This document shows positions 3,558 through 59,026 of a DNA stretch of 64,000 nucleotides, piece by piece; the first letter of the stretch is position 1; each line of letters opens with the position of its first letter. A program made the translations under genes and the position numbers. The DNA lies in NCBI GenBank assembly GCA_964412025.1, contig CAYPLY010000001.1:4797-68796 (forward strand), read 5' to 3'. Below the pieces are notes generated by a model that worked only from the letters and a program-made list of their open reading frames with translations, searched no databases and was not told where the DNA came from. The DNA comes from Candidatus Woesearchaeota archaeon (GTDB lineage Archaea > Nanobdellota > Nanobdellia > Pacearchaeales > GW2011-AR1).

Positions 3558-3602
3558 TACATATATAATAAGTATTTTTAACAAATAATAGATATATTTA
3601 TA
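3558..3602 (+). promoter_or_regulatory. AT-rich TATA-like promoter region upstream of the giant surface-protein gene
   Basis: TTTATACATATATAATAAG and TATATTTATAAGG motifs lie 25-70 nt upstream of the ATG at 3628. Confidence 0.3.
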
Positions 3603-3627
3603 AGGTATATTACATAAATAATAAGTA

Positions 3628-12600: not shown

Positions 12601-15600
12601 GCGAGTGGTCAGGCAATTTATATTTACAATTCTTCATATATGAATTTAACTGAAAACAAAGCAACAAGTACTTCCTCAAGCGGTATTTACATAGAAGAAT
12701 CTTCAGATAATAACACTTTAACATCAAATAACGGAACTAGTTATGCTGCTGATAATTTTGGAATTGTATTGGGAACTTCCAGCAACAACATCCTTACAAA
12801 CAATACTGGTATGAATGTAAATAATGGAATTGGAATCTATATTGCAGTTTCTTCAAATAACAATACTTTGATTAATAATACGGCAATTTCAAATACAGGA
12901 CAGGGGGTTTATATTTATTCTAATTACAATAACACTCTTATTAATCAAAAAGCATACGGTGGTCTGGGGGTCTTTATAATAAATGCAAATTCTACAACTT
13001 TCAGAGATTGTGTTGAGATATCCGGGACAACTTTTGATGTAAATTTATTTTCAACTCCTTTAAGCAAGAACAACACTTTCATAAACTGTTCTTATGATAC
13101 GGAAACTGTTGGAGGGACAGATAACGAGCTAATAAGAAAATGGTATTATCAAGCATATGTTAATGATACTTCAGGAAGTTCAGTTTCAGATGCAAATGTA
13201 ACTTCATACAATGCAACAGGAGTTCTTCAATCTACAGCTCAAACTAATTCTTCTGGTTGGATTTCAAGACAGGAAGTTACAGAATATGTAAATACAGGAG
13301 GAACAAGAAGTTTCTATAATAATTATTCCATATTTGCGAATAAATCAGGATATATTAATGATAGTAATGAGTTTAATTTTACAATAACGCAGAATAAGGT
13401 TAATGACTGGTTTACTTTGGAGGGAGGAGGTCCAGCAGACTGTACAACAATTGGTAACTCAGGAATATTAGATACTGATAATGCATTTTATACCTTGACA
13501 GAGAATATCTCATCGCAGGGAACATGTCTTGATGTTGTAGCTGATAATGTTACAATTGATTGTAATGGATATTGGATAAATTATTCAATAAATGGACAAA
13601 GCGGGGATCATGGTATCTACACTAATCAGTTTAATACTACTATAAGGAACTGTAATATTGTTGATGGGAATTGGACAACTTCAAATACAGGAAGGTCTGG
13701 AATATATTTTAGTGGAGTTATAAACGGAACTATACAAAACAATTCTATTAATATAAGCAACACTCTAGGTATTCTTTTAAATTATAAGTCTTCAAATAAT
13801 ATCTTAATCAACAATAATGTTTACAGTTTTTCTGGAACTGCAATAAGCATTTACAATTCTACTAATAATTTATTGGAAAATAATACCGGGATAAGTAATT
13901 CAAGCTACGGAATCTCTTTACAATATTATGATGAGGGCAATATCTTAATAAATAATACTGGGATAAGTAATACAAGTAATGGAATTTATGTTTATTACTC
14001 GCATACAAATAATCTAACTAATAATAATGCAACAAGCACTTCTAATCATGGGATGCTTCTTGATCATTCAGACAATAATACCTTAACTAATAATAATGGA
14101 ACCAGTTTAGAAGATAGCAATGGAATTTATATATATCCTTATTCAGAGAATAATACCTTAATAGGTAATATTGGAACTTCTTTAGAAGGAGGAGTTGGAA
14201 TATCTCTTTGGTCTTCAGCAAATAATACTTTAATAAATAATACTGGTTTAAGTAATAGTAGCCGTGGAATCTTGCTTGCGTATTCAAATAATGTTACTCT
14301 AACAAATAATACTGGAAGAAGTAATTTTGCCCGTGGAATAGATATTCAATCCTCAAATGAGAGTGCTTTAATAGATAACGAAGGAATAAGTTTAGCAGGA
14401 AGTTACGGAATTATTGTTTATACGTCAAAGGACAATACTTTAATAGATAATATAGGAACAAGTAATACAAGCAACGGAATCTCTATACAATATTCTTCAA
14501 ATATCAATTTAATAAATAATACGGGTATAAACAACTATCAAAGCCAAGGATTCCTTATATATTACTCTAATAATAATACTCTTATAAATAATACTGGAAG
14601 AAATCTTGATTATGGTAATAGAGGACTTTATATTAGTAATTGTTTAAATAACACTGTAATAAATCAAATAGGAACAGGAACCAGAGGTATTGCAATATCT
14701 GGTTCAAATCATACTTTGATTCGAGATTGTATTAATGTTACTGGAAGAACCAACGATGTTTATATTAGTGATGCAAGTACTAATGTAACTTTCATAAATT
14801 GTTCTTATAATTACACTCCGGAATATGTTGGGGCTGGTAGCGAACTAATCAGAAAATGGTATTATCAAGCTTATGTAAATGACAGTTCTGGGGCTGCAGT
14901 TGAAGACGCGAATGTAACTGCATATAATATAACAGCGCAAATTCAATTCACAGAACAGACTAATGGAAGCGGGTGGATCGGAAGGCAGGAAGTTATTGAG
15001 TATATTAATACAGCTGGAACAAGGAGTTATTACAATAATTACACTATAAATGCAACAAATACCACTTTTACAGAAGATCACATATTCAACTTTACAATAA
15101 CACAGAATAAGGTTGACGACGTGTTTACATTGGACGATTCAGGTACAGCAGATTGTAATACAATTGGAAACTCCGGAAAATTGGATGTCGAGGGGCAAAC
15201 ATATACTTTAACAGAAAATATTTCCTCTCAGGGAACATGTTTAACCGTCTCTGCTGAAAATGTTACAATCGATTGTAATGGGTATTGGATAAATCATTCT
15301 ATAAATGGAACAGATGCAATGTATGGGATATATTCAAACCAATTTAATACAACAATAAAGAATTGTAATATTATTGATGGGAATTGGTCAATAGGTACTC
15401 AAAGCAGAAGAGGGATTTATTTGGTTTCGAGTCATAATTCTACTCTATTTAGAAATTTCATAAACGAAAGTAATTCTCAGGGGGTTTATACTAGCGGTTC
15501 GAATTATATGAATATTACCAACAATACGATTTCTTCTTCTTCTAGCCAGGCAATAAGGTTGTCTTCTTCTCATTATAATATTTTGGTTGGAAATAATATT

Positions 15601-17565: not shown

Positions 17566-17615
17566 TAATATTTATAAAGCTAAATAATTTAAATAATTGA
17601 TAGGTTAGTAAAAAG

Positions 17616-18539
17616 ATGAAAAGAGGAATTTATGTTTTTGTTCTGTTTTTTGCAATTTTATTAACTTTGTCCATGGTTTCTGCTGGAGGCTTTGATGAAT
17701 TTTGGGATAAGATTACTGGAAGAGCTACTACTCAGGATGTTAGTTTAAGCGTAACAGTAACTGGTGGAAGTGTACCTGTTGTAGTCGCAGTGTATAACGA
17801 GACCGCAACAAGTATGCAAAGTGGTCCAAATGAGGGTCCTGCTCCAACTCATGTTATTGCCGTTTTTAGAGTAAATGATCCTGATGGAATAGGAAATTTA
17901 GATAATTCATCTGCAGTTATGAATTTTTCTTTGGCAGGTGAAACTACAAGGCAGGCAACGTGCACTTTTGTTGCTGGGCAAAGTACTTCAACCCAAGCAA
18001 ATTATACTTGCAACGTTACAATGTGGTGGTATGATGCACCCGGACAATGGACTATTAATACCTATATAGAAGATTTAAGTGGAAATTCTGGATATAATAG
18101 CACTTCAAAAAATGTTTATGTTGGAACAACTGATGGACTTTTGGCAAATCAGACTTCTTTGACTTGGCCTTCTATAAATCCGGGGGCAGCAAATACAGAA
18201 GCGAATGAATTTATGGGATTAAACAATACTGGAAATAGACCTAGATCATTATATGTTAATCCTTCAGATCTTCTTGGAGATGTTAATGAGAATTATGCTT
18301 TGGGTGCAAATAATTTTAGCGTTAAGAATGCAACAGGATGTGAAGGTACTCTTATGGTGAATAGAACCGATACAAATATAACCTCTGTTGCTGTATTTAA
18401 TAGAGGTAATTATACTTTGAATGATGGAACTGCACAGGCAAATCTATATTATTGTCTTGAGACTTCAAACTCAAACTTAATTGCACAGTCATATTCAACC
18501 GGTGCTCTTGGAGCATGGATAATAAAGACAGGAAATTAA
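17616..18539 (+). CDS. secreted protein paralogous to the C-terminal domain of the giant protein
   Basis: Signal peptide MKRGIYVFVLFFAILLTLSMVSAGG. The block SGPNEGPAPTHV...NFSLAGETTR...ANYTCNVTMWWYDAPGQWTIN...LNDGTAQANLYYCLE aligns with giant-protein residues near its C-terminus (SGPNEGPVVTYV...NVTMWWWDAPGTWSIN...LNDGTAQETIYFCLE). Confidence 0.7.
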   Translation: MKRGIYVFVLFFAILLTLSMVSAGGFDEFWDKITGRATTQDVSLSVTVTGGSVPVVVAVYNETATSMQSGPNEGPAPTHVIAVFRVNDPDGIGNLDNSSAVMNFSLAGETTRQATCTFVAGQSTSTQANYTCNVTMWWYDAPGQWTINTYIEDLSGNSGYNSTSKNVYVGTTDGLLANQTSLTWPSINPGAANTEANEFMGLNNTGNRPRSLYVNPSDLLGDVNENYALGANNFSVKNATGCEGTLMVNRTDTNITSVAVFNRGNYTLNDGTAQANLYYCLETSNSNLIAQSYSTGALGAWIIKTGN

Positions 18540-18540
18540 A

Positions 18541-19071
18541 ATGAAAACAATTAAAAAAGTATATCTTAGTATGATAGTTCTCCTAGCAGGAGTTCTTGTC
18601 ATGGGGAATGTTTTAGCTTTTGCAGTTTCTTCAATGTATTGGGAAGAGAATCCGTTATCTATTAATCCAGGAGAGACTCAACAGGCATACATTGTTCTGC
18701 AGAATATGGCAGGAACAGAGAGTGTTAGTGCTAGAGTGGGTATTTTAGAGGGATCTGAGATAGCAACCTTAGATGAACCTGGAAAGATTTACGAGGTTCC
18801 TGTTGGACAGAGGGTCGAGGTTTATTTTACTGTTAATGTTCCAGAAGAAAGTGAGATTGGAGGAGTACAGAACGTTGTTTTTGATGTTTCTACGATTGCT
18901 AGTCAAGAAGAAGGGCCGATGACTTTTGGTTCTGGTGCTCAGAAATTAGTTCCAGTTTTGGTCTCTGCTGAGCCGAGAGAAAAAATCTCTCCTTGGTTAT
19001 ATTATGTTATTGCAGGGATAGTATTGTTTGGGATAGTGGCTTTGGTGGTTCTTAAAAGTAAGAGAAAATAA
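18541..19071 (+). CDS. small membrane-anchored surface protein (N-terminal signal/TM, C-terminal TM with KSKRK tail)
   Basis: Its start lies 2 nt after the stop of the previous gene. Hydrophobic N-terminus; C-terminal segment ISPWLYYVIAGIVLFGIVALVVLKSKRK. Confidence 0.55.
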   Translation: MKTIKKVYLSMIVLLAGVLVMGNVLAFAVSSMYWEENPLSINPGETQQAYIVLQNMAGTESVSARVGILEGSEIATLDEPGKIYEVPVGQRVEVYFTVNVPEESEIGGVQNVVFDVSTIASQEEGPMTFGSGAQKLVPVLVSAEPREKISPWLYYVIAGIVLFGIVALVVLKSKRK

Positions 19072-19108
19072 ATAGAATAACTTTTTAATACTGCTTTGCT
19101 TTATCTAA

Positions 19109-20815
19109 TTGATGAAAAAGGGATTGATGTTTTGGGGTATTTTTTTATCTCTATTTATATTATTTATAGGATTTGTATTGGCTGATGCAGATATAACCGG
19201 ACAAACCATAACGGGGGAAGCTGTTACAGGAAAGGCATTGCAATCTTCTTTGGCATTAAATATCACTGTTACCCTCCCTATTCCAGTTATAACCATATTA
19301 AGTCCTAAAAATGGAACTTATTTAACTAATGAATCAATTTTAATAAATTATTCTTCGGTTAATGCAGATAATGTTTGGTATAGTTTGGATTCGGGAAGCA
19401 ATATAACTTTGAATTCTCCCGTTTATATTAATGTTTCTCAAGGCCAACACACATTGTATATTTATGGAAACAATAGTTATGATTCTGTAACAGAAATGGT
19501 TTCTTTTGTTTCAAATTCAAGTTTATTCATAATTTTATATAGTGAGTATAATGGTTCCACAAGAGGAAATTCTACAGGTTTTATCAAATATACCTATGAG
19601 GATTTACAAGGTTTAAGTAGTATTGTCTTGGAGAACACACTCTATGGAAAAATAAGGTTTAATCAGGCAATAAATATAACTAATGATAGGATTAATTCAG
19701 ATAATTTATTGGATTTAGATTCCAATTCACAGGTTTCTTCAAATAGAATAGAGTTAAATGTTACAGAACTTCCTAATTTTAACACTTCTGCAACTTTATG
19801 GTTATATGGATTGTCTTTTACAAACCCCAGGATATTAAGAGAGGGGGTAATTTGTCCTACAGATGAATGTATTAAGGAGAGTTATTCTGGAGGGATATTA
19901 AGGTTTTATGTAAATCATCTTGGTATTTATTCTGCTGAAGAGACTCCTTATACTCCTCCTTCAACTGGGGGGGGAGGAGGTGGTGGAGGTTCTTCTTCTA
20001 CAGAAGTGTATGATGATACTCCTATTATCGATATAGTTGAGGATAACATTACTTTAATTTCTGATGAAATAAAAGTATCTTTAAATCCAGGGGAAACTAT
20101 TTTCCAGGATTTTTATTTGATGAATGCTTATGATGGAATTGTTGAGGCAGATATAAGTTTTGTAGGTATTGAAAATTTTGTTAGCGTAAGTGAAACAAAT
20201 ATTATTCTTCCTTACCAGGAGATAAAAGCATTAAAACTTAATTTTTCAATTCCAAAAGATACACCTCCAGATAATTATGTTGGGAAGATATTGGTAAAAT
20301 CAAATGGAGTTATTTATGAATCTGTCATTTCTATAGATGTTCAATCTGTTGAGTCTCTCTTTGATGTTCGTTTAGAGATGGACGAGGAGAAACTTCCTGC
20401 AACTCCTGGAAGTTATATTTGGTTTAAGACCTTAATTTATAATTTGGGTGGTGATGAGGACGTTGAGGCATATTTAGAATATTCTATTAAGGATAGTTCG
20501 GGAGGGGTAATCTTTGAGGGAGAGGATCTTGTGTTGGTAGGAGATTATCTTGAAAAGGAGGGAAAAATTAAGCTTCCAAGGGATATTTCAGATGGAAAAT
20601 ACGTTCTCTCAACAAAGATAGGTTATGAAGGAAAGACTGCTGTTACAAGCGTTAGCTTTGATATTCAAAGAAGAAAATTACCCAAAATATGGAAGATTTT
20701 AATCCCTATACTTGTAATATTTTTATTATTGTTTATATTATGGTTTATTGGTAAGAAGGATGAGAAAAAGAGAAAAAGAGAACAAGAGAAAAAGCACGAG
20801 TCTTTGAATTATTAA
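19109..20815 (+). CDS. surface glycoprotein-like protein with C-terminal TM anchor
   Basis: Signal peptide MMKKGLMFWGIFLSLFILFIGFVLA. Many N-x-S/T sequons. A poly-Gly/Ser linker PPSTGGGGGGGGSSS. C-terminal TM (ILIPILVIFLLLFILWFIG) followed by a K/R/E-rich tail. Confidence 0.65.
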   Translation: MMKKGLMFWGIFLSLFILFIGFVLADADITGQTITGEAVTGKALQSSLALNITVTLPIPVITILSPKNGTYLTNESILINYSSVNADNVWYSLDSGSNITLNSPVYINVSQGQHTLYIYGNNSYDSVTEMVSFVSNSSLFIILYSEYNGSTRGNSTGFIKYTYEDLQGLSSIVLENTLYGKIRFNQAINITNDRINSDNLLDLDSNSQVSSNRIELNVTELPNFNTSATLWLYGLSFTNPRILREGVICPTDECIKESYSGGILRFYVNHLGIYSAEETPYTPPSTGGGGGGGGSSSTEVYDDTPIIDIVEDNITLISDEIKVSLNPGETIFQDFYLMNAYDGIVEADISFVGIENFVSVSETNIILPYQEIKALKLNFSIPKDTPPDNYVGKILVKSNGVIYESVISIDVQSVESLFDVRLEMDEEKLPATPGSYIWFKTLIYNLGGDEDVEAYLEYSIKDSSGGVIFEGEDLVLVGDYLEKEGKIKLPRDISDGKYVLSTKIGYEGKTAVTSVSFDIQRRKLPKIWKILIPILVIFLLLFILWFIGKKDEKKRKREQEKKHESLNY

Positions 20816-20834: not shown

Positions 20835-20906
20835 AGCACGGGGTGGGAGTCGAACCCACGAAAATTCGCTCTGCAGGCGAACGCAGTACCGTTGTGCCAC
20901 CCGTGC
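20835..20906 (-). tRNA. tRNA-Cys (GCA)
   Basis: The reverse complement folds as a cloverleaf. Acceptor GCACGGG/CCCGTGC; anticodon stem TTCGC/GCGAA; loop CTGCAGA; T-arm GTGGG-TTCGACT-CCCAC. The discriminator is U73, as expected for Cys. Confidence 0.65.
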
Positions 20907-20909
20907 GTA

Positions 20910-20999
20910 TGCCCCGGACAGGATTTGAACCTGCGACCCCTAACTTTCTTCTCTATTTATTAGAAGGCTAGTGCTCTATCCAGGCTGAGCTACCAGGGC
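20910..20999 (-). tRNA. tRNA-Arg (TCT) with an intron of about 15 nt in the anticodon loop
   Basis: Acceptor GCCCTGG/CCGGGGC; D-arm GCTC-AGCCTGGATA-GAGC; anticodon stem CTAGC...GTTAG. The 22 nt between the stem halves are CTTCTA[ATAAATAGAGAAGAA]A. T-arm GCAGG-TTCAAAT-CCTGT. The intron position is assumed to be the canonical 37/38 site. Confidence 0.55.
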
Positions 21000-24258: not shown

Positions 24259-27200
24259 TTAAATACACTTTGCTCTCCAAACATGAGTTATATACCAAGT
24301 AGTTCCAAATGGATTTGTGTATGTCTTTGAACTAATATCTACAGACTGCCCTCCATCATGAATAATTGTTATCCCTGGACTTGTTGATGCATAATTAGAG
24401 AAGATAGTTATGTGCTGATATTCTCTGTCATAACTTCCACTTCCCCCCCATATAATTAAATCCCCCTCTTTCAATCCGGTTTTCCATTCTGATTCTGGTA
24501 TCTCGGTGAAATCCGCTTTATCAAAAATATCTATTAGTTCCATTATAGCATCTCTATAAGGTATTGTATCGGATGTGCAGCTTTGAAATTGTGGGAGGGT
24601 ATCTGCTTCGATTAATACATTAGATACAAAAGTAGCGCAAACATTATCATAAACAATTGCTCCGTTTTCAACACGGGTTGTATCTTCTCCAAGCTTATTT
24701 TTTGCTATTGATAGTATTCTTTTGCCCGTTTGTGAATTATCACAACTTGAAGGAGCCTCCCCATTGTATAATCTAACTAATTCAAAATATTTCTCTTTAA
24801 CATTTCTAACATAGTTTGAGTCTCCGGTTGAACAGTCAGTATTCCATCCATTATATCCTCTTAAAGCATATTCCCATCCACTATACCTTTCAATAGGGTT
24901 AACACAAGTATAAATTTTACTTGAGGAACTATATGCTTCCTTTAATACTTGTGCTCCTATATTGATATTTAATTGTTCATTGGATAATAAAATAGATTTG
25001 CATTGGGTAATATCTGAGGGTAAACCTTTAGTTCCACAATGTATTGTGTTGATTTGCATTAATCCATTATCTCCCCCAGAAGTTACTGATCTACAAGATG
25101 ATTCTTGGACCATTATTGCAAGCAATAACAATTCATCCGGGATATTGCTACTGGCTGAACTAGCAGCACTTGTAATCCATTTAGCGTACTCATCACAATT
25201 TTCTCCACAAGAACATCTTAAATTAGTGTTTAAAACTCCCAGAGTAGACAATGCTTTCATTAAATTAGTCAGTTTTGTTAAATCTCTTCTTTGAAGCTGA
25301 GAATCAAGTGTATTTGTGTATGTTGTGGGAGTTTCTCCTTCTCCAAATGCTTCCGACATTTCTTGTATTTCTTCTGAGGAGTAATCAAACAGAATAGCAG
25401 CCCCCTTATATAAATCACTTTCTTTTAACATCGTTATAATATTTTTTTGCTCTTCGTTAAATCCAGGAGCAACATTTGACATACTTTGCCAAACACCTCC
25501 TCCCTCGAACATATCATCAATTTGCCAGAACCAATCTCCATTCTCATATTTGTAGTAAAGTTTTTTCATTGGTTCATAATCAACATCCTTAAATTTAACA
25601 GTGAATAGTCCTTCTTCATCTAGAGTCGTTGTTTCTAAAGTTTCATCCGAAAGTTCGGCGTTTTTATCTCCAATTATCTTGTTTATAAGTATTTTTAGTC
25701 CTCCAAGATAATCTCCATCTTTATCTTGTAGTGCAATTATAAGTTCTTCATTTTCTTCAGAAACATGATTTGTATATTCGGTTCCTAAACTATCTACATC
25801 ATACCATGGCACTGTTGTGCTACATGTAAATGCAAATTGCCATTTAGAGTTATAATATCTATAACACCTGTCATCTAACGTTAAAGGATTTTTATCATTG
25901 AAATGGAAATAGGGTGAAATATATTTTGCATTAAATTGTGCTTGAAGATTTTCGGGAGTGGAGGTTGTTGTCCCTCCTGTACTTGTTCCTGTAGATGTTC
26001 CTCCTGTTGTGGTTCCACTAACAATTGCTGCTTCCATTAAATTAACCGAATATTCTCCAATTGCAAGAGCAGAATATAACTGTCCTCTCATTAAAAATAA
26101 CTTTGCTTTTTGGTTGTTAAAGAATATTTTATCCCATAGTTCATCTATCATTTCTATTTTCTTTTTAACATATGTCTCATCTTTTATATCTTCTATAGCT
26201 TCCTTGAATTCTTTGGTTGTAAGATAATCTCCTTCATTGAACAGGACATTTTCATAGTTTGTTGCAGTTTGGCTTAGTATGTTATCTTCTATATTCAATG
26301 AGTGGACTATTTCTTTAACCTTATCTCTATCAAGCCAACACTTTACTTTTGTATCTCCACATACTCCCACAGGAGTCCATCTTGCTTCTTCTGGATCTTC
26401 CCATGATTCATCTGTTCCTTTTCCAGGATTGTCTGTTGCACACACTCTTATTATTCCGTTTTCGTATATCTTTGGGTCTAAAATTTCCTCTGCTGCGTTT
26501 TGAATATTAGGGTTTAACAAACTGTATAAACTTGCTGTTCCAGAAATACATTCCTCTTCTGTTTTTACCTGGGTTGTCGTTTGTTCTTGTATATATAATT
26601 CGCTCATGTAATTAACTGCAAAAGATGTTGAAACCTGCTCGAAATCACAGTTTTCTCTTCCGTTTACTGTAATGCATAAATATTTGAATCCGGATGGTGC
26701 TGTAAAGTCTGTACTGTTTGTTGCATATTCTCCTGCAGGAATATATCCTGATGCAACCTTTCTATCAAACATAGTATCTTGATAGTAAGAGCTTCCTGTT
26801 CCTTGTTTTAATGCAACCTGATAATAAACTCCAGTGTCCTTTCCTGCATATATATGGTATGAAACTTTATAATGGGAAGTAGGAGGGTTTGTTGCTGTGG
26901 TGTAGGGTATCTCCTGGAATTTTCCTGTGTATTGTGTTGGAGAGTCTGGGTCGGTTAAGCTATCAAGGAAATCTCCGCTTCCAGGGAAGATTACTGAAGG
27001 GAAGCTTTTGCAAACTTCAGCACCTACTTCATCTGTTGAACGTAGTTTGAATGCTTTCCAGGAGTTTTCAGCATAGAATCCTTTGAAAAATTCTATTGAA
27101 TCCTGGGCTTTTGAAAGTGCATCCTTTACCCCCAGATATTCTCCTCCTCCACGAGGGTTTTCTTTGAATATTGCACTTAATATCTTGGGTATGGTCAATT

Positions 27201-30200
27201 TTGCAAGAGGAAGGGCCTGTCTCCAGAAGAAATCACAAATATATATGCTATATACTTCATCACAAATTCCTACCGTTTCTCCAGTTTCTATATTTTGTTG
27301 AAGACAATCTCTGTAAGATTTTTGTACGCTTAAAAATCCATCCAATCCTGTTTGTACTCCTGATACACATATTGGAACAACTATTCCTTCTTTTGCATTA
27401 GGAAGACATAAAGCTATACTTCCTATTACTCCTGATTGTATAACATCCTGAACTGGATATGTTCCTCCCAAGTCGCATCTTGAGCTTGGACATACAACAG
27501 GATCACATACATTGAATAGTATTTGACATTCTTTAGGGGACATGAAATCCTGACATTGTACTGCAGGGGTTTGTACTGCAGGACTTCCAACATCATAGGA
27601 CACTCCTCCTATTCTAACTCTTCTTGCTCCACTTGCATATGCTCTTTGTGCTTCTTCAATTGATTGTCTTGCTTTTTCAACCATTGCAGAAGCTTCGTTT
27701 TCACTTAATCCTAAAACCTGATTTAATGCCTGTCCCGTTCTCAGGTTAATCATTTCACATTTATCATCTCTTGCCTCACTGAAAAAATCTTCCAACCCGT
27801 CCTGTCCAACATTACAAATCCAGAAAACTTCTATTCTTCCAGAATCGTCATAAGCCTTTAGAGTTTCAGAAGTAAGCATTGGTTTTGTTGCTGCATACCA
27901 TCCAGTTGCTTTATCAAGAGGAACTATTGCGGGATTTCCCTTATTTGGTTCTTCTTCATAGTATTTTAATTCAGCATTTTTATAGGTGTTTTTCAAGGAG
28001 TTTTTATCGTATCTTTGGAAGACTATATTGAAAGGGTTTTCCTGGACAACCCCCTCTTCTTTACCATTTTCTCGATACAAGGAAATTGTTTTTGTTGTTT
28101 CATCAATCTTGTAAGTTTGTTCCACTACCCCTTTATCTCCATCAAGTTTGTAAGTTAATAAGAATGTTCCAAATCCTCTTTCATCTTTTACAACATAAAC
28201 TGGTTTGTTTCTGTCTATTGAGGCACCAGTATAACCATTCTTAACATATTCTGTGTTTGCAAAAGTCTCTATATAGTAAACTGGAATTTCTGTTGTTTTT
28301 ATCCCTTTTAGGTTCCATACTCCGCTACTGGATAACCCACTTGTTTCTTTTAGAGAGATTTGAGAAGAATAAGTTTGGGAGTTAACCTGAACATCTCTTA
28401 GAACAGTATATAGTCTTTTTGTTGCTGTTTCTTTTAATTCATCACTGGAACTAGGATCGTTTAATATTTCAGAGTATAACCCTATTTCTTTAAGTTGGTC
28501 TGTGCTGTATACTCCTTCCTTAAATCCCCCCTCTGTAAGGATGTTGTTTATGTTTTGGAATTCAATTTTTTTTGTTTCTGATATTTCTTCGTTGTTTATT
28601 GCTTGTTGAATTGAACTTTCACTCAAAGTTTCTCGTGTTTTTTCAGAATAATCATTTATCCATCCTTCTTGGGTATTTGTTCCTTCTTCTGCTTTTTTTA
28701 TTCTTTGATTTTCAAATTGAATGTATTTGTAAGTTTCTTCAACTTGGGAATCTATTTCATCTGCATTTTTGTAAAAACAAGAATCTAGAGAAGGATATTC
28801 TCTCGGATTATCTCTGACTAGATTTTCACATTTTTCAGTCCATCCATTTTCTCCCTGCATTACTTTTTGCCTTGCAATGGATTTTCCTCCCATATTTGAG
28901 AGCATATTTTTGAATGTCAAGAAACCAGCTGTTCCAGTACATGCATATTTCCATACTTTAACAACTCCTGCTAAAGTGTTGGAGACTTTTTCTATGCTTT
29001 CTATTTGTTTGTTTAAGGTTTCAATTTTGCTTGCAGCTTTTTCAGGAGTTAGAGGGAAACTTCTTTTTTCAATTCCTACTTTGAAATTAAAATCTACCTC
29101 GCTATATTCAAAGTTCGTGTTTCCTCTTATTGCGACCTTTGCAGATTTTTCTAAGTTTATTTTCTTTAATGTGAAAACATATCCCCCGTATGGGAATGCT
29201 TTATCTATTTCAAGTTTCTTTGTGTCGCTTGCAAATCCTTTTTGCCAGGTGCTTTCATCAGCCACATAAATGTATACATCTGCAGATTCTGTTTCTAGAG
29301 AACTTAACATAATATATTCTTCTCTTTCAAGTTCATTTTCTCTAAATCCTTCCAGGTTTATCTTTTTGTCTTTTTCAAGTTCAAATGTTCTTGTTACCCC
29401 ATTTGGTCCTCTAACATAAAGCTCTACTCCATAATCTTCAAACTGAGGGTCATCTATTCCCAGAAGAGAAATTTCCTTAACTCTTCCATTAATTGAGACT
29501 TCCATTGTTGAAAGTGTATCGCTTGAGATTCTATAATCGTCCTCACAAATTGATAAAACAGTTGGATAAAGAGTAGACTCTTCATATCTTTCTTTAAATT
29601 CCTCACATAATTCCAATGCTGTTCTTTTTTTGTTTAATTTTATTGACAACGCAATTGCTTCATATAATGCTCTTTCTCCATACGTTTCAATAGAGCTCTC
29701 GGAATCTTTTTCTCCGGAGAAACTTGATCTAACAGTTTGGAAGTCATTCATTGCATTTTCGTAATATTGATTAAAAAGCTCATCAGGAGAATCGGTGTAT
29801 GTTGCTCTCTCAACAATAAGCTTGTTTTCTTTAGGGATTATTCTTGCTCCTATAATATGTTCGAAGAAATCGTCTAAGTTGGAAGGAGGATCGAAATTGC
29901 TATTTGTTGATAGAGTATAATTAGAAGGACAATTTAGATAATTATTGCATCCTGTTTCTGAATAAAAAGCTCCGTATTTTTTTAGAAGACTTGTTTTTGC
30001 AACTATATCGTCTGCACCCAATATAAGTATTGATTGTCCAAGGTCTGATTTTAATTCTTCAACAATTAAACCTGTCTTTTCATTTCCTTGTTTTATGGTG
30101 TATATAGTTCTTCCAAATAGTGAGAATATGGAAGTATCTCTTTCTAAGCTATATTCGTTTTCTTCTATTTTTAAAATCCCCTGGTCTGCTCCTTCTCCAA

Positions 30201-31686
30201 ATCCAACTATTGAGACTTCTTTTCCTTTAACGTCTTTGGGTAGGGAAACCCCTCCTGTTTTTGGATGCTCAAAAGGTATGAAGTAGAAATCTTCTCCAAC
30301 GACCGCCCACTTTCCTATAGTCATAGTAGCATGAGTAAATCCAGTTACTCCAGATACAATTGCATCATAAACTCCTGCTCCTGTTTTACCAGATTGTAAG
30401 GTGTTTGCGTATGAGTTTACAGAAGCAAGGTCGTTTGCATCGAGTCTTTCTTTGTGTTCCGGAGCAGCGAATAAATATACATATAAATCCTTGGATAATT
30501 CACTTCCGTCCCAAGAACCCACATATCCCAAATAAACTGATTTTTGCCCATCGGGAGTTTTGTATAACCAATCTCCCACCTCATACTCTCCTACTTCTCC
30601 ATCTATCTTCAGTTTAACTCTTGGAGATATTCCAAGAGATACTGTCTGAGGTTTATCTCCATTGCAATGTACTTTTACGCTTTGATAAAGTCCTTCTTTA
30701 TTTATGTCTTTTACATAACATTTATTATCAAGGAATTTTTCATTTTTTGCAACTTCAATGTAATCAGAACCTACCTTTAATTTTACTCTCGTATCTGGAT
30801 TAACTAAATCTTGTAATGTTACAGATAGTGTTGCAAGACAGGGGCTAAATCCGGGGAGATACAATTCATCGGATTTTTCTCCTTCATTTAAATGGAAGCT
30901 TGCATATTTTGATTTGCTGTAGGTTCTTCCTTCTCTTGAAAAAGTCCCAGAGCTTACTATTGTATCGTCGGAGTACATTACAATTTGGGCTCCTTCATTA
31001 TCTACAGATAATGCTCTTAGGTATCCTCTTCCTTCCCAAAAGCTGTATTGGATATACTTTTCATTCCATTCTTCATCACTCATTTCTTTAAGGTAAAAAT
31101 CTGTGTTTCCAACTCCAAATGCATTTTTTATGTCATATCTTACTTTTGCTGTAAGATTTCCCTGGACATATTCTGGCATTTGAGATTCGTTTGGTTGTTT
31201 TTTTATGGTTATTACAACATAACCTAAATCACTTAATATTGGGGAAGTTAACACCCCTTCTTGATTTGAAGTTCCAAGTGCAGCTTTAGAAGGGAAATAT
31301 CCAACACTTCTAACTTGCTCGGAAAGTTCTTGTTGTGAGGGAGCAAAGCTCAGATAATCTATTGCTTCTATTTCTATTAAGGGATTAATTTGAGTTGCTC
31401 CTAATTGGCAATAAACCTGAACATCTTGTTCTTCCAACAAATCGCTTCTTACAACGGCAGGAGTGCATCCAAAAGGAACTATTTGTATTAATAAGTCAGT
31501 TCCTCCTTCTTCACACATAGATTTATCAAACTGTAGGCTACTTCCACTTCCAAATGCTCCTATTCCTATTGTGTTTGAATATTGCATTCCGCTTGTTACT
31601 GCACGAGTATATGCTGAAACAGATGAAATTAGTATTAATCCTACAAGTAGTATTAGCATTCCAATTAAGTGTCTTTTATTTATCAT
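24259..31686 (-). CDS. giant (2475 aa) secreted Cys-rich protein with C-terminal lytic transglycosylase (SLT/GH23-like) and CHAP amidase/peptidase domains
   Basis: Sec-type signal MINKRHLIGMLILLVGLILISSVSA. C-terminal region LLLAIMVQESSCRSV...GLMQIN...YALRGYNGW (SLT catalytic Glu, GLMQ and Y-x-GW motifs). It is followed by NVCATFVSNV ... GDLIIWGG ... YQHITIF (CHAP Cys/His). A Thr/Gly linker TTGGTSTGTSTGGTTTSTP precedes the C-terminal module. Confidence 0.8.
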   Translation of the reverse strand: MINKRHLIGMLILLVGLILISSVSAYTRAVTSGMQYSNTIGIGAFGSGSSLQFDKSMCEEGGTDLLIQIVPFGCTPAVVRSDLLEEQDVQVYCQLGATQINPLIEIEAIDYLSFAPSQQELSEQVRSVGYFPSKAALGTSNQEGVLTSPILSDLGYVVITIKKQPNESQMPEYVQGNLTAKVRYDIKNAFGVGNTDFYLKEMSDEEWNEKYIQYSFWEGRGYLRALSVDNEGAQIVMYSDDTIVSSGTFSREGRTYSKSKYASFHLNEGEKSDELYLPGFSPCLATLSVTLQDLVNPDTRVKLKVGSDYIEVAKNEKFLDNKCYVKDINKEGLYQSVKVHCNGDKPQTVSLGISPRVKLKIDGEVGEYEVGDWLYKTPDGQKSVYLGYVGSWDGSELSKDLYVYLFAAPEHKERLDANDLASVNSYANTLQSGKTGAGVYDAIVSGVTGFTHATMTIGKWAVVGEDFYFIPFEHPKTGGVSLPKDVKGKEVSIVGFGEGADQGILKIEENEYSLERDTSIFSLFGRTIYTIKQGNEKTGLIVEELKSDLGQSILILGADDIVAKTSLLKKYGAFYSETGCNNYLNCPSNYTLSTNSNFDPPSNLDDFFEHIIGARIIPKENKLIVERATYTDSPDELFNQYYENAMNDFQTVRSSFSGEKDSESSIETYGERALYEAIALSIKLNKKRTALELCEEFKERYEESTLYPTVLSICEDDYRISSDTLSTMEVSINGRVKEISLLGIDDPQFEDYGVELYVRGPNGVTRTFELEKDKKINLEGFRENELEREEYIMLSSLETESADVYIYVADESTWQKGFASDTKKLEIDKAFPYGGYVFTLKKINLEKSAKVAIRGNTNFEYSEVDFNFKVGIEKRSFPLTPEKAASKIETLNKQIESIEKVSNTLAGVVKVWKYACTGTAGFLTFKNMLSNMGGKSIARQKVMQGENGWTEKCENLVRDNPREYPSLDSCFYKNADEIDSQVEETYKYIQFENQRIKKAEEGTNTQEGWINDYSEKTRETLSESSIQQAINNEEISETKKIEFQNINNILTEGGFKEGVYSTDQLKEIGLYSEILNDPSSSDELKETATKRLYTVLRDVQVNSQTYSSQISLKETSGLSSSGVWNLKGIKTTEIPVYYIETFANTEYVKNGYTGASIDRNKPVYVVKDERGFGTFLLTYKLDGDKGVVEQTYKIDETTKTISLYRENGKEEGVVQENPFNIVFQRYDKNSLKNTYKNAELKYYEEEPNKGNPAIVPLDKATGWYAATKPMLTSETLKAYDDSGRIEVFWICNVGQDGLEDFFSEARDDKCEMINLRTGQALNQVLGLSENEASAMVEKARQSIEEAQRAYASGARRVRIGGVSYDVGSPAVQTPAVQCQDFMSPKECQILFNVCDPVVCPSSRCDLGGTYPVQDVIQSGVIGSIALCLPNAKEGIVVPICVSGVQTGLDGFLSVQKSYRDCLQQNIETGETVGICDEVYSIYICDFFWRQALPLAKLTIPKILSAIFKENPRGGGEYLGVKDALSKAQDSIEFFKGFYAENSWKAFKLRSTDEVGAEVCKSFPSVIFPGSGDFLDSLTDPDSPTQYTGKFQEIPYTTATNPPTSHYKVSYHIYAGKDTGVYYQVALKQGTGSSYYQDTMFDRKVASGYIPAGEYATNSTDFTAPSGFKYLCITVNGRENCDFEQVSTSFAVNYMSELYIQEQTTTQVKTEEECISGTASLYSLLNPNIQNAAEEILDPKIYENGIIRVCATDNPGKGTDESWEDPEEARWTPVGVCGDTKVKCWLDRDKVKEIVHSLNIEDNILSQTATNYENVLFNEGDYLTTKEFKEAIEDIKDETYVKKKIEMIDELWDKIFFNNQKAKLFLMRGQLYSALAIGEYSVNLMEAAIVSGTTTGGTSTGTSTGGTTTSTPENLQAQFNAKYISPYFHFNDKNPLTLDDRCYRYYNSKWQFAFTCSTTVPWYDVDSLGTEYTNHVSEENEELIIALQDKDGDYLGGLKILINKIIGDKNAELSDETLETTTLDEEGLFTVKFKDVDYEPMKKLYYKYENGDWFWQIDDMFEGGGVWQSMSNVAPGFNEEQKNIITMLKESDLYKGAAILFDYSSEEIQEMSEAFGEGETPTTYTNTLDSQLQRRDLTKLTNLMKALSTLGVLNTNLRCSCGENCDEYAKWITSAASSASSNIPDELLLLAIMVQESSCRSVTSGGDNGLMQINTIHCGTKGLPSDITQCKSILLSNEQLNINIGAQVLKEAYSSSSKIYTCVNPIERYSGWEYALRGYNGWNTDCSTGDSNYVRNVKEKYFELVRLYNGEAPSSCDNSQTGKRILSIAKNKLGEDTTRVENGAIVYDNVCATFVSNVLIEADTLPQFQSCTSDTIPYRDAIMELIDIFDKADFTEIPESEWKTGLKEGDLIIWGGSGSYDREYQHITIFSNYASTSPGITIIHDGGQSVDISSKTYTNPFGTTWYITHVWRAKCI

Positions 31687-33521
31687 CTAAGGTCTACGTC
31701 TAGTGTTTTAGTTTCAAATAAAATATAATTTGCTTGTATCTGTTCGAATGATGAAGGATTTGGCATACTTTCTGCATTAATATAAATTGTTTTTGAGTTT
31801 TGTAATTCATATTCGGATATGGAGTAATTTTGTTTTCCTCCTCCTGCAAGTGCACTTGAAATCATTTGTTGAGGGTAATCTACATTGAAGCATTGTTTCT
31901 CTGTTAAGCCTAATAATGAACCCAGCCCTCCTCTTGGGACATCTATACATTGTTCCATTGTTGTTTCTCCAAGACTTAATGAGGAATTTTTATATATTTG
32001 AACCTCTATCTCATAATCTCCTTCACTTAATTCTACCTTCTTCTCCTCAGGATACATTATCGTCTTTGAGAAATCGTCCGATATAAATGTGATTGATGCC
32101 TGCCCGTTATATTCCCTTCTATCAACATATAGATTTATTCCTATTTCATGTATTTTATTAAGGATTATCGATACACTTGTTTTATCAAGGGTGGTTGTGT
32201 GCATTAATTTCTCATCTCTATATCCCTCTGATCTTACATAAATATATCCATTAACACACTCAGGGAATCTGTCGTATAGTACCCCTCCTTCAGATTCTCC
32301 TATTAGACAACTTGTTCCAAGACATTGGTAAGATACGTTTCCATCTATCTTTTTTAAGTCATTTCCATATATACTTACAGTTACTAAAGAAGTTTTATCG
32401 TCGCAAAGTTCAGAGAATTCTCCTCCAATTGCCGAACCTTCTAGAGGCTTTCTTGGTTTATTTCCCAGTATTACTATTGCCAATGGGAATTGGAAAGTTT
32501 CTTCTCCAGACATAACTTGTACTAAAACAGGGTGTTTTAGATTATATACAAAGTGGTATGTAACGTAACAGAATCCTAATACTCCCAATCCGGCTTGAGT
32601 TCCTACCGGCTTAGCTATAAGCATGTTTCCTTCAGACGGAAGTACCTCAAAGCTATAAGGCCAATCTTTGGAATTTAGGAACTTTACATTATGGTCTGAG
32701 GGGATATCTTCAATTTCAACCTCAAAATAATCATTTTTATTTGAGCTTCCTTTTAATGCCATAGTATTTATTTCAATTGCTTCCTGTAAATCATTAAATA
32801 TGCTATTTGCTTCCCAAACTTTTGGAGAGCAAGTTAACTCAACTCCATCTACAGGAGCATACATTCTTAAAATATCAATGGTGTAATTTTCTAAAAATAG
32901 ATTTTCTTGCTCCTCTTCGTATACTTTAAGGGCAGATTCATAGAGAGAACCTAATTTGGAATCAATTATAATTTTATGCTCTCTTACAATATAGGTTTCA
33001 TCTTCTTTGGTTATAGAAAAATCCATTTTCAAGTTAAGAGTTATTTGTTTATCGTTTATTACTATTTCTACATCGGGTTCTTCCATAGTTATTTCATATC
33101 CCTGATTGTAATAATCTTCAAAATAACATCCTCTTGATTTGGATTCTATGAATTTTGATAAATCTTTTTCCATATCATTTATAGAAGGTACTTGTTCTTT
33201 GGGTACATTGTTTGCGGATACATAATACCAATAAGGAATTGAACTTCCTACGAAGTCAAGTTGAGAAGAGAAAGGCATATATTCGGAGCCTTCTTCGTAT
33301 TCAGGAAGATAAATATATCCTCCCTGACTTTCTAATAATTGAATTCCAACTTTAGCATCTTCTTCAATACAGGAAGTAAACGTTTTGTAAATCGGGTTCA
33401 TTTCTGAAGGTATTCTCCCCGGGAAAATGTCCTTCCAAAAAACAATAAACAACACAGCCATTGCAACTATTACAATTGCAAGAATAATAAAAATAGTAAC
33501 CTGCCCTCTTTTAAACCTCAT
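31683..33521 (-). CDS. 612-aa protein with class III (archaeal type IV pilin-like) signal peptide
   Basis: N-terminus MRFKRGQVTIFIILAIVIVAMAVLFIVFW. That is basic residues, then G, then Q, then a roughly 21-residue hydrophobic helix, which is the prepilin-peptidase substrate pattern. Its stop overlaps the start of the downstream giant gene by 4 nt (operon). Confidence 0.6.
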   Translation of the reverse strand: MRFKRGQVTIFIILAIVIVAMAVLFIVFWKDIFPGRIPSEMNPIYKTFTSCIEEDAKVGIQLLESQGGYIYLPEYEEGSEYMPFSSQLDFVGSSIPYWYYVSANNVPKEQVPSINDMEKDLSKFIESKSRGCYFEDYYNQGYEITMEEPDVEIVINDKQITLNLKMDFSITKEDETYIVREHKIIIDSKLGSLYESALKVYEEEQENLFLENYTIDILRMYAPVDGVELTCSPKVWEANSIFNDLQEAIEINTMALKGSSNKNDYFEVEIEDIPSDHNVKFLNSKDWPYSFEVLPSEGNMLIAKPVGTQAGLGVLGFCYVTYHFVYNLKHPVLVQVMSGEETFQFPLAIVILGNKPRKPLEGSAIGGEFSELCDDKTSLVTVSIYGNDLKKIDGNVSYQCLGTSCLIGESEGGVLYDRFPECVNGYIYVRSEGYRDEKLMHTTTLDKTSVSIILNKIHEIGINLYVDRREYNGQASITFISDDFSKTIMYPEEKKVELSEGDYEIEVQIYKNSSLSLGETTMEQCIDVPRGGLGSLLGLTEKQCFNVDYPQQMISSALAGGGKQNYSISEYELQNSKTIYINAESMPNPSSFEQIQANYILFETKTLDVDLR

Positions 33522-33580
33522 CTAGATTTAATGAAAATTACATATATAAAGTTTATTGAAATTTCAAAAAGAAATAAATT

Positions 33581-33796
33581 TTAGTATCTTTTTCTTATTG
33601 TGTTATATCTGTTAACCTTGAGGAAATTTATTCCTCCAAAAATTAAAAGAATTCCTCCGGCAAAAATTATCCATCTGTTTATATCAGAAGAGAATCCCGT
33701 AAATTTAGGTATAAATGTTATCCCAAAATTAAGAAAATATATACCTAAAAGTAAGTATAATATGAAAAAAATCATTCCTCCACCACTTCTTACCAT
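33581..33796 (-). CDS. small two-TM membrane protein (71 aa), first gene of the minus-strand surface operon
   Basis: Hydrophobic segments FFILYLLLGIYFLNFGITFI and WIIFAGGILLIFGGINFL. It has the same orientation as the pilin-like gene, 59 nt upstream of it. Confidence 0.4.
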   Translation of the reverse strand: MVRSGGGMIFFILYLLLGIYFLNFGITFIPKFTGFSSDINRWIIFAGGILLIFGGINFLKVNRYNTIRKRY

Positions 33797-33851
33797 GGTT
33801 AAAATAGAAAAGAAGTATATTTAAATATTTTTATTATGAATATTTTATATT

Positions 33852-34053
33852 GGTCCCATAGTTTAATGGTAGAACATGTCCTTGACGATGGGGTTCTTTA
33901 GAAAAGAACCTACAATGGTAGAAAGTGGGTTTTTCTTTTAGAAAAAGAAAATCTACAATGTAAAAGAAAAACTGCAAGAGTAGAAAAAAAGAAATTACAA
34001 TTGTAGAAAAAACTACCCTTGAGAATACAACATCAAAATGGACAGGGCTGCAG
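33852..34053 (+). tRNA. intron-containing tRNA (tentatively Val, anticodon GAC) with an intron of about 130 nt built from hairpin/direct repeats
   Basis: 5' exon GGTCCCA-TA-GTTT-AATGGTA-GAAC-A-TGTCC-TTGACG. 3' exon GGACA-GGGC-TGCAG-TCCGATT-CTGCA-TGGGACC-A. The acceptor and anticodon stems pair perfectly across the interruption. The interruption contains perfect hairpins GGTTCTTT-AGA-AAAGAACC and TTTTCTTTT-AGA-AAAAGAAAA, and repeated TACAAT(G)GTAGAAAA motifs. Confidence 0.5.
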
Positions 34054-34077
34054 TCCGATTCTGCATGGGACCATTTT

Positions 34078-34356
34078 CTAATTTCTTTTACTAATTTTCC
34101 CCCCCTTAACTTGTCCCCAATTATCTTTTAAGATTTGTATGTTCAATTCTTCTTTATTTATCTTTGAAATATAACATAAATCATTAAAAAGATTTTCAGG
34201 CAAAAGTCTTTCTTCGGCAAGATAGTTTTTCAGGGTAGAATAATTAATGCTTAATCTGTTCCCTAATTCCCTTAAGGATGGTGAATTTATTTTTTTCATT
34301 ACTTCTTTAATAAATTTCTTTTGTTCTCCTTTCTTGAATTCTACTCTATTATTCAT
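34078..34356 (-). CDS. possible small HTH DNA-binding protein (93 aa, from the internal Met)
   Basis: The translation ...INSPSLRELGNRLSINYSTLKNYLAEERLLP... looks like a helix-turn-helix. The longer version of this ORF overlaps rpl44e on the opposite strand, so the start at 34356 is preferred. Confidence 0.3.
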   Translation of the reverse strand: MNNRVEFKKGEQKKFIKEVMKKINSPSLRELGNRLSINYSTLKNYLAEERLLPENLFNDLCYISKINKEELNIQILKDNWGQVKGGKISKRN

Positions 34357-47064: not shown

Positions 47065-47589
47065 TTATGTTTTAACCCAACTTACTTCGTAATAAGAAAC
47101 ATCTGATTCTTCATCAATTATTGCTAAAAGTAGATTCTTTTTTGTAGAATGCGCTACCCTATTTTTTGCAGCAAACTCGTGCCAGGAGAATTTTTTTGAT
47201 TCATGTTCACAGAAAACAATCCATTTAGCATGTTCTTCATCCGGGGTTGTTCCTTTTTCATATACTCTGAAATCAGCTCCAAATTTAAGTGCAGTTTTTA
47301 GTACATATCCTTTGTCACGTAAATCTCTAAAAACGGGATATTTTAATTGAATTCTGCTGTCTATCTTTTTGAATATCCTTAAAATCTCTTCAAAATTAAG
47401 TATCTTGTTTGATTTTTTTATTTGTATTTTGTTTTTCTCAAGAAGATAAAGAGCTTCAACCAGAGAATATTGTATTTTTTGTCCCACTGGCTGTCCAAAA
47501 TTGGACTTTTTGTAGAGTGTAAATGCCTCAGATTCGTTTGTTGAGACAATTTCTCCTATTAAATAGGTATTTATTTTCTCCATGTTCAT
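47065..47589 (-). CDS. endA: tRNA-splicing endonuclease
   Basis: ...RDLRDKGYVLKTALKFGADFRVYEKG...HAKWIVFCEHE is the EndA catalytic C-terminal domain pattern. 174 aa. Confidence 0.8.
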   Translation of the reverse strand: MNMEKINTYLIGEIVSTNESEAFTLYKKSNFGQPVGQKIQYSLVEALYLLEKNKIQIKKSNKILNFEEILRIFKKIDSRIQLKYPVFRDLRDKGYVLKTALKFGADFRVYEKGTTPDEEHAKWIVFCEHESKKFSWHEFAAKNRVAHSTKKNLLLAIIDEESDVSYYEVSWVKT

Positions 47590-59025: not shown

Positions 59026-59026
59026 A

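Follow-up and report, generated by a model that had tools for sequence, protein, structure and literature searches.

A conserved pair of genes in DPANN archaea encodes a protein with a class III-type signal and a giant secreted protein with a variable tail

We analyzed a stretch of 64,000 nucleotides (nt) of DNA from a DPANN archaeon, referred to here in its entirety as the window, that encodes a 612-amino-acid (aa) protein with a pilin-like N-terminus and, directly downstream, a giant secreted protein of 2475 aa. A third gene, for a protein of 71 aa, lies upstream, and every open reading frame (ORF) of the three is on the minus strand. The N-terminus of the 612-aa protein is a class III-type signal that is well supported by its pattern and conservation, and the gene is followed by that of the giant in every related locus that extends far enough downstream. 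The two proteins probably form one host-contact device. We prefer, and give about an even chance, a reading in which the giant is a glycan-poor effector with swappable murein-hydrolase tips and is displayed by the 612-aa protein, a modular anchor or adaptor of pilin-like type.

The three ORFs were confirmed where the initial annotation of this DNA had placed them (Table 1). The 612-aa protein belongs to a large family, with more than 2,250 matches at 90% clustering (the full-length ones listed being 604-639 aa long), 5,863 clusters at 50% identity with E <1e-3, of which 645 fall below 1e-30, and 355 stretches confirmed by tblastn in a collection with one genome per species. The family is confined to DPANN archaea, namely Pacearchaeota, Woesearchaeota and Nanoarchaeota. 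Its alignments have a mean column identity of 63-65% and contain 10 conserved cysteines, as would be expected for an extracellular protein, and its most constrained feature is the N-terminus. A logo built from 80 distinct N-termini of related loci has Gln at +1 and Phe at +5 of the predicted cleavage site in 80/80 sequences, and position -1 is invariably Gly, Ala or Ser (61, 13 and 6 sequences, respectively). The flanking positions are nearly as constrained: Lys at -3 (56/80), Lys or Arg at -2 (71/80), Thr at +3 (77/80) and Ala at +9 (75/80). Leaders of 5-6 residues are the most common. The window sequence, MRFKR-G|Q, combines a short leader with a charge at -2 and Gly at -1, and the hydrophobic stretch of about 22 residues, matching the length of roughly 20 residues expected of a hydrophobic domain (H-domain) after the cleavage site, begins directly behind the motif. 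The KDIFPGR sequence that follows this stretch has no small-x-small Sec cleavage site. This order of elements is the class III layout, in which cleavage precedes the hydrophobic domain. Even highly divergent members of the family (approximately 315-415 bits, vs. 955 bits for the best profile match) retain the motif, with N-termini such as MRAQITLF, KKAQITIF, KKGQVTIF and MRRGQISMF; the motif is not a product of chance.

These constraints coincide with positions that prepilin peptidases read. All prepilins need Gly, Ala or Ser at -1 and archaeal peptidases need a charge at -2, according to a review (PMC4371748), which also describes the requirement of Methanococcus EppA for Gln at +1 and lists KGQV, KGQI, KGQL and RAQI among the FlaFind-predicted sites of M. 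maripaludis EppA substrates (PMC4371748, Table 1). The RGQV of the window fits this series, save that +5 is Phe instead of Glu. The class III signature recognized in the initial annotation is therefore upheld, both by the constraint on the positions concerned and by the lack of a Sec cleavage site behind the helix.

We also examined the arrangement of the genes in a comparative set of 84 related loci, 83 of which have DNA downstream of the 612-aa gene. The N-terminal, middle and core regions of the giant lie directly downstream of this gene in 83/83 loci, a pairing that is not due to chance. The two genes overlap by 4 nt in the window (ATGA, 31683-31686); taking the first in-frame ATG as the start of the giant, 50 loci show a gap of -4 nt, and most of the remaining ones a small gap. 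Promoters were sought with the archaeal TATA-like motif TTTAWATA, allowing no more than one mismatch. Upstream of the 612-aa gene, 39/82 loci have the start of the motif at -29 from the ATG, and nearly all other offsets occur fewer than three times, with the exception of -79 (13), -27 and -25 (8) and -40 (6). The box at -29 implies a separate promoter for the 612-aa gene and a leaderless or nearly leaderless mRNA. Such a peak is also found before the small upstream gene (the -30 bin, in 44/60 loci), and there is none at the start of the giant (2/83 loci). This distribution supports a single transcription unit of the 612-aa and giant genes, which are probably coupled in translation, and a promoter of its own for the 71-aa gene. 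The joint behavior of the 612-aa and giant genes in transcription and translation extends over hundreds of species. A homolog of the 71-aa protein was detected by tblastn upstream and on the same strand in 60/84 loci, with the motifs YF(I/L)N, PE and WII..GG conserved, and the protein belongs to no family in Pfam and NCBIfam scans. The T-rich run behind its stop codon is a possible archaeal terminator. The 71-aa gene is a conserved neighbor that is probably transcribed separately, with read-through possible. Of the operon of three genes that had been suggested for this region, two are supported as members: the consistent pairing, the overlap and the missing giant promoter speak for joining the 612-aa and giant genes, and the separate TATA-like boxes and the T-rich run speak against including the 71-aa gene.

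A further small ORF of 44-46 aa (MKKYLLLIEDEKLWKKFK..DINTEIIELIKKK) is highly conserved, with an identity of 65-100%. It adjoins the 612-aa gene in 39/84 loci, different from those with the box at -29, and either abuts the start of this gene or overlaps with it; the ORF is at 9874-10008 of locus L003 and 9862-10002 of locus L013, and 37 other loci have it as well. It is absent from the window, where the TATA-like box is found instead. We considered a ribbon-helix-helix protein, a guess that was unsupported by Pfam, in which the ORF has no family.

The giant is built of a conserved trunk and a variable tail. Its only strongly hydrophobic segment is the N-terminal signal, and the whole protein has 46 Cys, many of them invariant. 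Conservation of the trunk peaks at aa 1370-1790, a region that contains many of the invariant Cys. Homologs of the giant, which span 1,874-3,064 aa, are found in Pacearchaeota and Nanoarchaeota, and in most of them homology ends at about aa 1875-1915. The sole Pfam match of the giant, and the only match obtained when all three proteins were scanned with Pfam and NCBIfam, is the SLT domain in its tail (E 1e-5, 25.5 bits vs. a cut-off of 21.3; 27.6 bits with the tail alone), which passes the gathering score and contains the catalytic Glu-Ser, GLMQ and YNG elements as QESS at aa 2194, GLMQI at 2208 and GYNGW at 2277. The C-terminal region with a Cys...His pattern has no Pfam match and may be a second hydrolase, possibly of the NlpC/P60 or CHAP type. 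When the tails of 51 giants were compared, SLT was present in 17, and Amidase_3, Amidase_2, VanY, Peptidase_M15_4, LRR and CAP domains were present in one each; the remaining tails have no recognized domain and some are nearly absent. A recognized peptidoglycan-hydrolase domain is found in roughly 40% of the tails. Ankyrin and TPM domains likewise occur in giant homologs. An AlphaFold2 model of aa 1240-1900 reached a predicted local distance difference test (pLDDT) score of 63 and a predicted template modeling (pTM) score of 0.29, with pLDDT <50 across the Cys-rich helical core, and Foldseek returned only generic beta-sandwich matches for it, which are uninformative. These comparisons indicate that the trunk is the conserved core of the giant and the murein hydrolase a variable accessory. 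The term murein-hydrolase giant, as first applied to this protein, fits the SLT-bearing tail of the window, but describes only a minority of the tails and not the conserved core.

The 612-aa protein, scanned over its whole length, matched zero Pfam or NCBIfam families, and a search of the PDB sequences with the family profile gave nothing under E 0.07. Its AlphaFold2 model, based on 105 sequences, has a pLDDT of 77 and a pTM of 0.50, and begins with a helix at residues 4-32 that is followed by a low-confidence, Pro-rich break and a helix at 42-65. A Foldseek comparison of this model with the PDB gave no type IV pilin. The matches were generic tandem beta-sandwich surface proteins with TM-scores <=0.18, among them B. 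anthracis TIE, Sulfolobus SlaB, sortase pilins and cohesins. Given these low scores and the missing pilin match, the modeled fold neither supports nor excludes a pilin module. The initial annotation had proposed a pilus-like fiber subunit; in this reading, the 612-aa protein would be the major subunit of a thick fiber. The class III-type signal and the position as first gene of the unit, behind its own promoter, speak for such a subunit. However, 612 aa in four or five domains argue against a major fiber subunit, being far above the size of known major pilins; the helix is split from the body by the Pro-rich linker; coupling of translation to a protein of 2,475 aa suggests a fixed stoichiometry; and neither a pilin fold nor a pilin profile was matched. 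The fiber subunit is the least likely reading of the 612-aa protein, and one to which we attach very little probability.

The N-domain of the 612-aa protein also occurs alone. Proteins of 238-273 aa share its KRGQVTIFIII N-terminus and are distant paralogs of the N-domain, with 23-29% identity over approximately 210 residues. Locus L086 encodes, in the order given and within 1279-13251, a 612-type protein (624 aa), a giant (2286 aa, no Pfam match), a 272-aa paralog and a protein of 807 aa that carries a PG_binding_1 domain together with YkuD, which has the L,D-transpeptidase fold; to judge from these domains, the murein-targeting function resides here on a separate protein. Two proteins with the N-terminus KRGQVTIFIIIAV and a length of about 270 aa are encoded in locus L085 (2245-16009), each directly before large proteins with a Sec signal (1,394 aa; then 701 and 847 aa). 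Behind these lie three ORFs (156, 148 and 100 aa) whose N-termini consist of K[KR]G plus a hydrophobic stretch. A small protein with a pilin-like N-domain, followed by a large secreted protein, is thus a repeated arrangement, which favors an anchor or adaptor role for the 612-aa protein.

Several results weigh against the reading of the 612-aa protein as an anchor or adaptor with a processed class III signal. Phe is found at +5 in 80/80 N-termini, whereas EppA substrates usually have Glu at this position. No curated pilin or class III profile was matched, even if the first 50 aa were scanned alone and E values as high as 10 were admitted, when Class_IIIsignal and Pilin_N of Pfam and the archaeal flagellin/pilin N-terminal domain of NCBIfam were tried; since these models are short and lineage-biased, the failure to match is weak evidence. 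A Pfam scan of nearly all ORFs of at least 100 aa in the window revealed no prepilin peptidase, PilB/FlaI-type ATPase or platform gene, and neither a T2SSE-type Walker A nor an A24 GxGD motif was found among ORFs of at least 150 aa in 1.37 Mb of related loci. No machinery of type IV filaments (TFF) lies within 10 kb in any of the 84 loci. Type IV pilus components were reported to be missing from DPANN genomes in a groundwater study (10.1101/2020.05.14.094862), in conflict with a TFF census in which Epd-type system 1 and subsystem 4A are present in DPANN (10.64898/2026.04.22.720090). Finally, the 612-aa model has a pTM of 0.50, and the core of the giant was not modeled confidently. Class III signals also serve large non-pilin bindosome proteins, and proteins of this type are often encoded away from the machinery, many of the genomes that carry them having a peptidase without a TFF locus (10.64898/2026.04.22.720090; PMC4371748).

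Alternatively, the N-terminus may be an uncleaved signal anchor and the 612-aa protein a plain type II membrane protein, in which KRGQ is kept for a different reason, for instance topology or contact with lipids. One very hydrophobic helix after basic residues agrees with the positive-inside rule, and the missing curated match and the machinery not found in the window and the 1.37 Mb of loci are in line with this alternative. However, a plain anchor needs no invariant Gln and Phe, nor a fixed Gly, Ala or Ser, across divergent members and paralogs of unrelated length, and the pattern agrees with predicted EppA-type sites. We therefore consider a plain signal anchor unlikely. The 612-aa protein may also be a pilin of the minor or tip type in a true type IV-like pilus. 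Machinery encoded elsewhere in the genome would extrude it, and it would present the giant at the tip of the fiber, as PilY1 is presented by minor pilins in bacteria. The class III-type motif would be in place, modular large pilins and large adhesins are known from TFF loci (PMC8179133; 10.64898/2026.04.22.720090; PMC4858521), and the three short ORFs that adjoin the paralogs in L085 have N-termini of the K[KR]G-plus-hydrophobic type. Against this stand the missing TFF machinery, both in the window and within 10 kb in the 84 loci, the location of the pair amid ribosomal-protein and TFB genes, the lack of a pilin fold match and the lack of a PilY1/PilC match in the giant, in which neither Neisseria_PilC nor DUF2341 was detected by Pfam. 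A tip pilin, too, seems rather improbable to us.

An unexpected property of the giant is its depletion in N-X-S/T sequons, of which it has 4 vs. 20.3 expected (z -4.3). Among 46 giant homologs the median is 6 sequons vs. 20.7 expected, and z is below -2 in 43/46. The cytoplasmic proteins of the window are sequon-neutral, and its other giant ORF, which is on the plus strand (3628-17565; 4645 aa) and contains Beta_helix, NosD, Disaggr_repeat and Gly_rich_2 domains, has 236 sequons vs. 117 expected (z +11.5). Enrichment elsewhere and depletion in the giant suggest that surface proteins of the organism are glycosylated and the SLT giant avoids this modification. These counts bear on the possibility that the pair is an S-layer, composed of a large canopy protein and a membrane stalk as in SlaA/SlaB of Sulfolobus. 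The pair is universal in the lineage, lies in a housekeeping neighborhood and forms a two-gene unit of a large protein and an anchored one, and SlaB (8qox_B, E 2.8e-5) was among the Foldseek matches of the 612-aa protein. However, the SlaB match has a TM-score of 0.13 and reflects generic beta-sandwiches, the anchor topology is opposite, with the anchor at the N-terminus instead of the C-terminus, S-layers are not characterized by variable enzymatic tails, and the sequon-enriched 4645-aa ORF is a better envelope candidate. We rejected the S-layer reading on the grounds of sequon depletion and anchor topology and regard it as highly unlikely. As for the 4645-aa ORF, three ORFs follow behind it (17616-18539, 18541-19071 and 19109-20815), none with any family, and two of them are sequon-enriched (13 vs. 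6.7 and 15 vs. 5.6 expected). The ORF group from 3628 to 20815 is likely to be a glycosylated envelope or adhesin cluster.

The mechanism that we infer for the anchor or adaptor involves cleavage of the leader, a physical interaction of the 612-aa protein with the giant and a bacterial target. One shared mRNA would provide the two proteins, probably in a fixed proportion. Removal of the leader MRFKRG by a class III signal peptidase (archaeal, EppA/PibD type) would give a mature 612-aa protein that begins at Gln7. The hydrophobic helix would then retain this protein in the membrane or allow it to dock onto a short base resembling a pilus, its ectodomain serving as a stalk or adaptor for the giant. 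The giant has a predicted cleavable Sec signal, lacks a membrane anchor and is almost free of sites for N-glycosylation; it would have many disulfides, and its trunk of about 1,900 aa would carry the swappable tail behind the Thr/Gly linker. In the window, the lytic transglycosylase and the likely Cys-His hydrolase of the tail may act where the archaeon touches a bacterial host, by cutting the murein of the latter. The distribution of hydrophobic segments speaks for the anchor role: the giant has no strongly hydrophobic one apart from its signal, and the 612-aa protein has a very hydrophobic N-terminal helix.

The giant itself resembles fam00969, a family of large SLT proteins of Pacearchaeota and Woesearchaeota that were proposed to bind and degrade bacterial cell walls (PMC8204110) and had been noted earlier by Rinke 2013 and Castelle 2015. 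The lineages are the same, fam00969 proteins reach about 3,000 aa and have an SLT domain, and the giant, with 2475 aa, a Sec signal and SLT, fits the description of the family, by which alone its membership is judged. However, the fam00969 paper does not describe an upstream partner, the overlap, trunk/tail modularity or the absence of SLT from most members. The pair was likewise undescribed in the literature that we searched on Pacearchaeota pili or giant proteins, and the supplements of PMC8204110 and of the TFF preprint (10.64898/2026.04.22.720090) contained nothing searchable on the family or on Pacearchaeota. Therefore, the view that this arrangement was unfamiliar needs to be narrowed: the giant family was already known, and what is new with respect to the searched literature is the partner with its coupling to the giant, together with the modularity of trunk and tail and the depletion in sequons.

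Among archaeal proteins that have class III signals and are not classical pilins, the sugar-binding proteins of the Sulfolobus bindosome and the Epd pilins of Methanococcus are similar to the 612-aa protein in their short basic leader, Gly, Ala or Ser at -1, charge at -2, helix directly after the site, and genes located away from TFF machinery. Gln at +1 is shared with the Epd/EppA substrates (KGQV, KGQI), and a large globular body behind a pilin-like N-terminus is shared with the bindosome proteins. In contrast to both groups, the 612-aa protein has Phe and not Glu at +5, no DUF361, Class_IIIsignal or Pilin_N match, a body that is not solute-binding and a strict pairing with a giant, and its signal is known from sequence alone. 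Modular minor pilins such as S. sanguinis PilB, or P. aeruginosa PilVWX with PilY1, also combine a pilin-type N-terminus with extra domains, and PilY1, which mediates contact, is comparable to the giant as a large partner that is not itself a pilin, has an ordinary Sec signal and lacks an anchor. However, there is no match in sequence or fold to these proteins and no pilus genes lie nearby, and the giant is archaeal, is twice the size of PilY1 and carries murein hydrolases. SlaA/SlaB of the Sulfolobales similarly form a two-gene unit of a large outer protein and an anchored beta-sandwich stalk, but the stalk is held by a C-terminal transmembrane segment with a coiled coil and not by an N-terminal, pilin-like anchor, and the giant differs in avoiding glycosylation sites and in its variable enzymatic tails. 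Lastly, polymorphic toxins of the CdiA, Rhs and MafB type have a long, conserved N-terminal trunk, a linker, C-terminal enzymatic modules that can be exchanged between species and a dedicated partner gene next to them, as does the giant. They have no sequence relationship to it, and the tips of the giant are murein hydrolases and not nucleases or deaminases; moreover, no immunity gene was seen, and the 612-aa protein next to the giant differs from a beta-barrel transporter.

Pacearchaeota and Woesearchaeota are abundant archaea with reduced genomes and without cultured members. The reported enrichment of Pacearchaeota in the largest size fraction of groundwater suggests strong host attachment (10.1101/2020.05.14.094862), and the principal indication that some members of the two lineages live on bacteria has come from the giant SLT proteins. 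To this we add that the giant is always accompanied by a dedicated partner with a pilin-type signal, that the conserved unit is the pair and not the hydrolase, the wall-cutting domains being swappable tips, and that the giant avoids N-glycosylation sites, unlike the other giant surface protein of the window. The pair offers a two-protein target for antibodies, labeling in cryo-electron tomography, prediction of the structure of the complex and enzyme assays, and the KRGQVTIF N-terminus may be used as a sequence marker for further displayed proteins in these genomes. A more far-reaching possibility, which we think distinctly doubtful, is a new contact apparatus that is lineage-wide in Pacearchaeota and Woesearchaeota and consists of a pilin-like adaptor and, held by it, a glycan-free giant 'lance', the conserved trunk of which would bring interchangeable murein-cutting tips into the wall of a bacterial host, with the class III-type signal used for sorting and anchoring and possibly without classical type IV pilus machinery. 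If this were true, the recurrence in L085 and L086 would make the succession of a KRGQVTIFIII-domain protein and a large secreted protein a general principle of secretion or display in these archaea.

Table 1. Features of the gene pair and its upstream neighbor, in positions of the window
Feature	Position	Strand	Basis or remark
612-aa modular surface protein with class III-type signal	31683..33521	-	Start MRFKRGQVTIFIILAIVIVAMAVLFIVFW; stop overlaps the start of the giant
Short basic leader MRFKRG, predicted prepilin-peptidase cleavage after Gly6	33504..33521	-	Logo of 80 N-termini
Gln7-Trp29, invariant +1 Gln and +5 Phe, hydrophobic H-domain	33435..33503	-	Kyte-Doolittle score 3.53
Alpha/beta N-domain of the 612-aa protein, aa ~42-260, conserved Cys51, Cys132 and Cys231	32742..33398	-	AlphaFold2 model
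Beta-rich C-terminal half of the 612-aa protein, aa 372-612, tandem beta-sandwich domains	31686..32408	-	AlphaFold2 model, pLDDT mostly 80-94
TATA-like box TTTATATA of the 612-aa gene, -29 to -22 from ATG	33543..33550	-	Motif scan
2475-aa giant secreted protein	24259..31686	-	ORF; overlaps the 612-aa gene
Predicted Sec-type signal peptide at aa 1-25 of the giant, ...SSVSA|Y	31612..31686	-	Cleavage site inferred; family consensus SFxSAY
Conserved trunk of the giant, aa 26 to ~1880, Cys-rich, no transmembrane segment	26047..31611	-	Alignments
Thr/Gly/Ser-rich linker, aa 1890-1911, border of trunk and tail	25954..26019	-	Sequence; end of homology in most relatives
SLT (GH23-type lytic transglycosylase) domain, aa 2184-2279	24850..25137	-	Pfam
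C-terminal region of ~175 aa, conserved Cys...His pattern (VCATFVSN, YQHITIF)	24262..24789	-	Sequence, consensus
71-aa protein, two hydrophobic helices	33581..33796	-	59 nt upstream of the 612-aa gene
TATA-like box TTTAAATA of the 71-aa gene, 29 nt before ATG	33818..33825	-	Motif scan
T-rich run TTTATTTCTTTTT directly behind the 71-aa stop	33566..33578	-	Sequence

The window is AT-rich and archaeal, with a G+C content of approximately 32%, and its gene content includes TFB, ribosomal proteins S8e, S3Ae and L10, SRP54/FtsY, several aminoacyl-tRNA synthetases and a tRNA-splicing endonuclease. The neighborhood of the pair consists of housekeeping genes, with S3Ae and L44e on one side and TFB and S8e on the other. 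The nearest public locus (L005) has 90% identity at the protein level and is on a contig labeled Candidatus Woesearchaeota; the remaining relatives are labeled Pacearchaeota, Woesearchaeota or Nanoarchaeota, with the exception of one contig binned as Bacillota. This contig (L054, DATKUW010000047.1), from a 'Bacillota bacterium' bin, contains the archaeal pair of 612-aa protein and giant, and represents either mis-binning or an episymbiont co-binned with a bacterial host.

Several minor observations concern the rest of the window. A tRNA-Val(GAC) gene on the plus strand (33852-34073; exons 33852-33887 and 34039-34073) has a 151-nt intron at the canonical 37/38 position that contains three imperfect copies of a CTACAATGGTAGAAA-like repeat. 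It was undetected by ARAGORN, even in intron mode, and by Rfam; the spliced sequence parallels that of the syntenic, intron-less tRNA-Val in L013, and the tRNA-splicing endonuclease gene is at 47065-47589. Conserved in its syntenic position upstream of tRNA-Val and the small membrane protein is an ORF of about 90 aa (MNNRVEFKKGEQKKFIKEV...SLRELGNRLSINYSTLKNY...; 34078-34354 on the minus strand of the window and 9041-9307 in L013) that is helix-turn-helix-like by eye, and for which the ORF list gives an over-long TTG start at 34476. A 90-nt tRNA was reported by Rfam, and not by ARAGORN, at 20910-20999 on the minus strand, adjoining tRNA-Cys (20835-20906); it may be another intron-bearing or long-arm tRNA. 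Finally, the gene for a DisA-type diadenylate cyclase (DAC plus DisA-linker) overlaps that of a DHH/DHHA1 phosphoesterase on the plus strand (57934-60067), a pair by which cyclic-di-AMP could possibly be synthesized and degraded in a very reduced genome.

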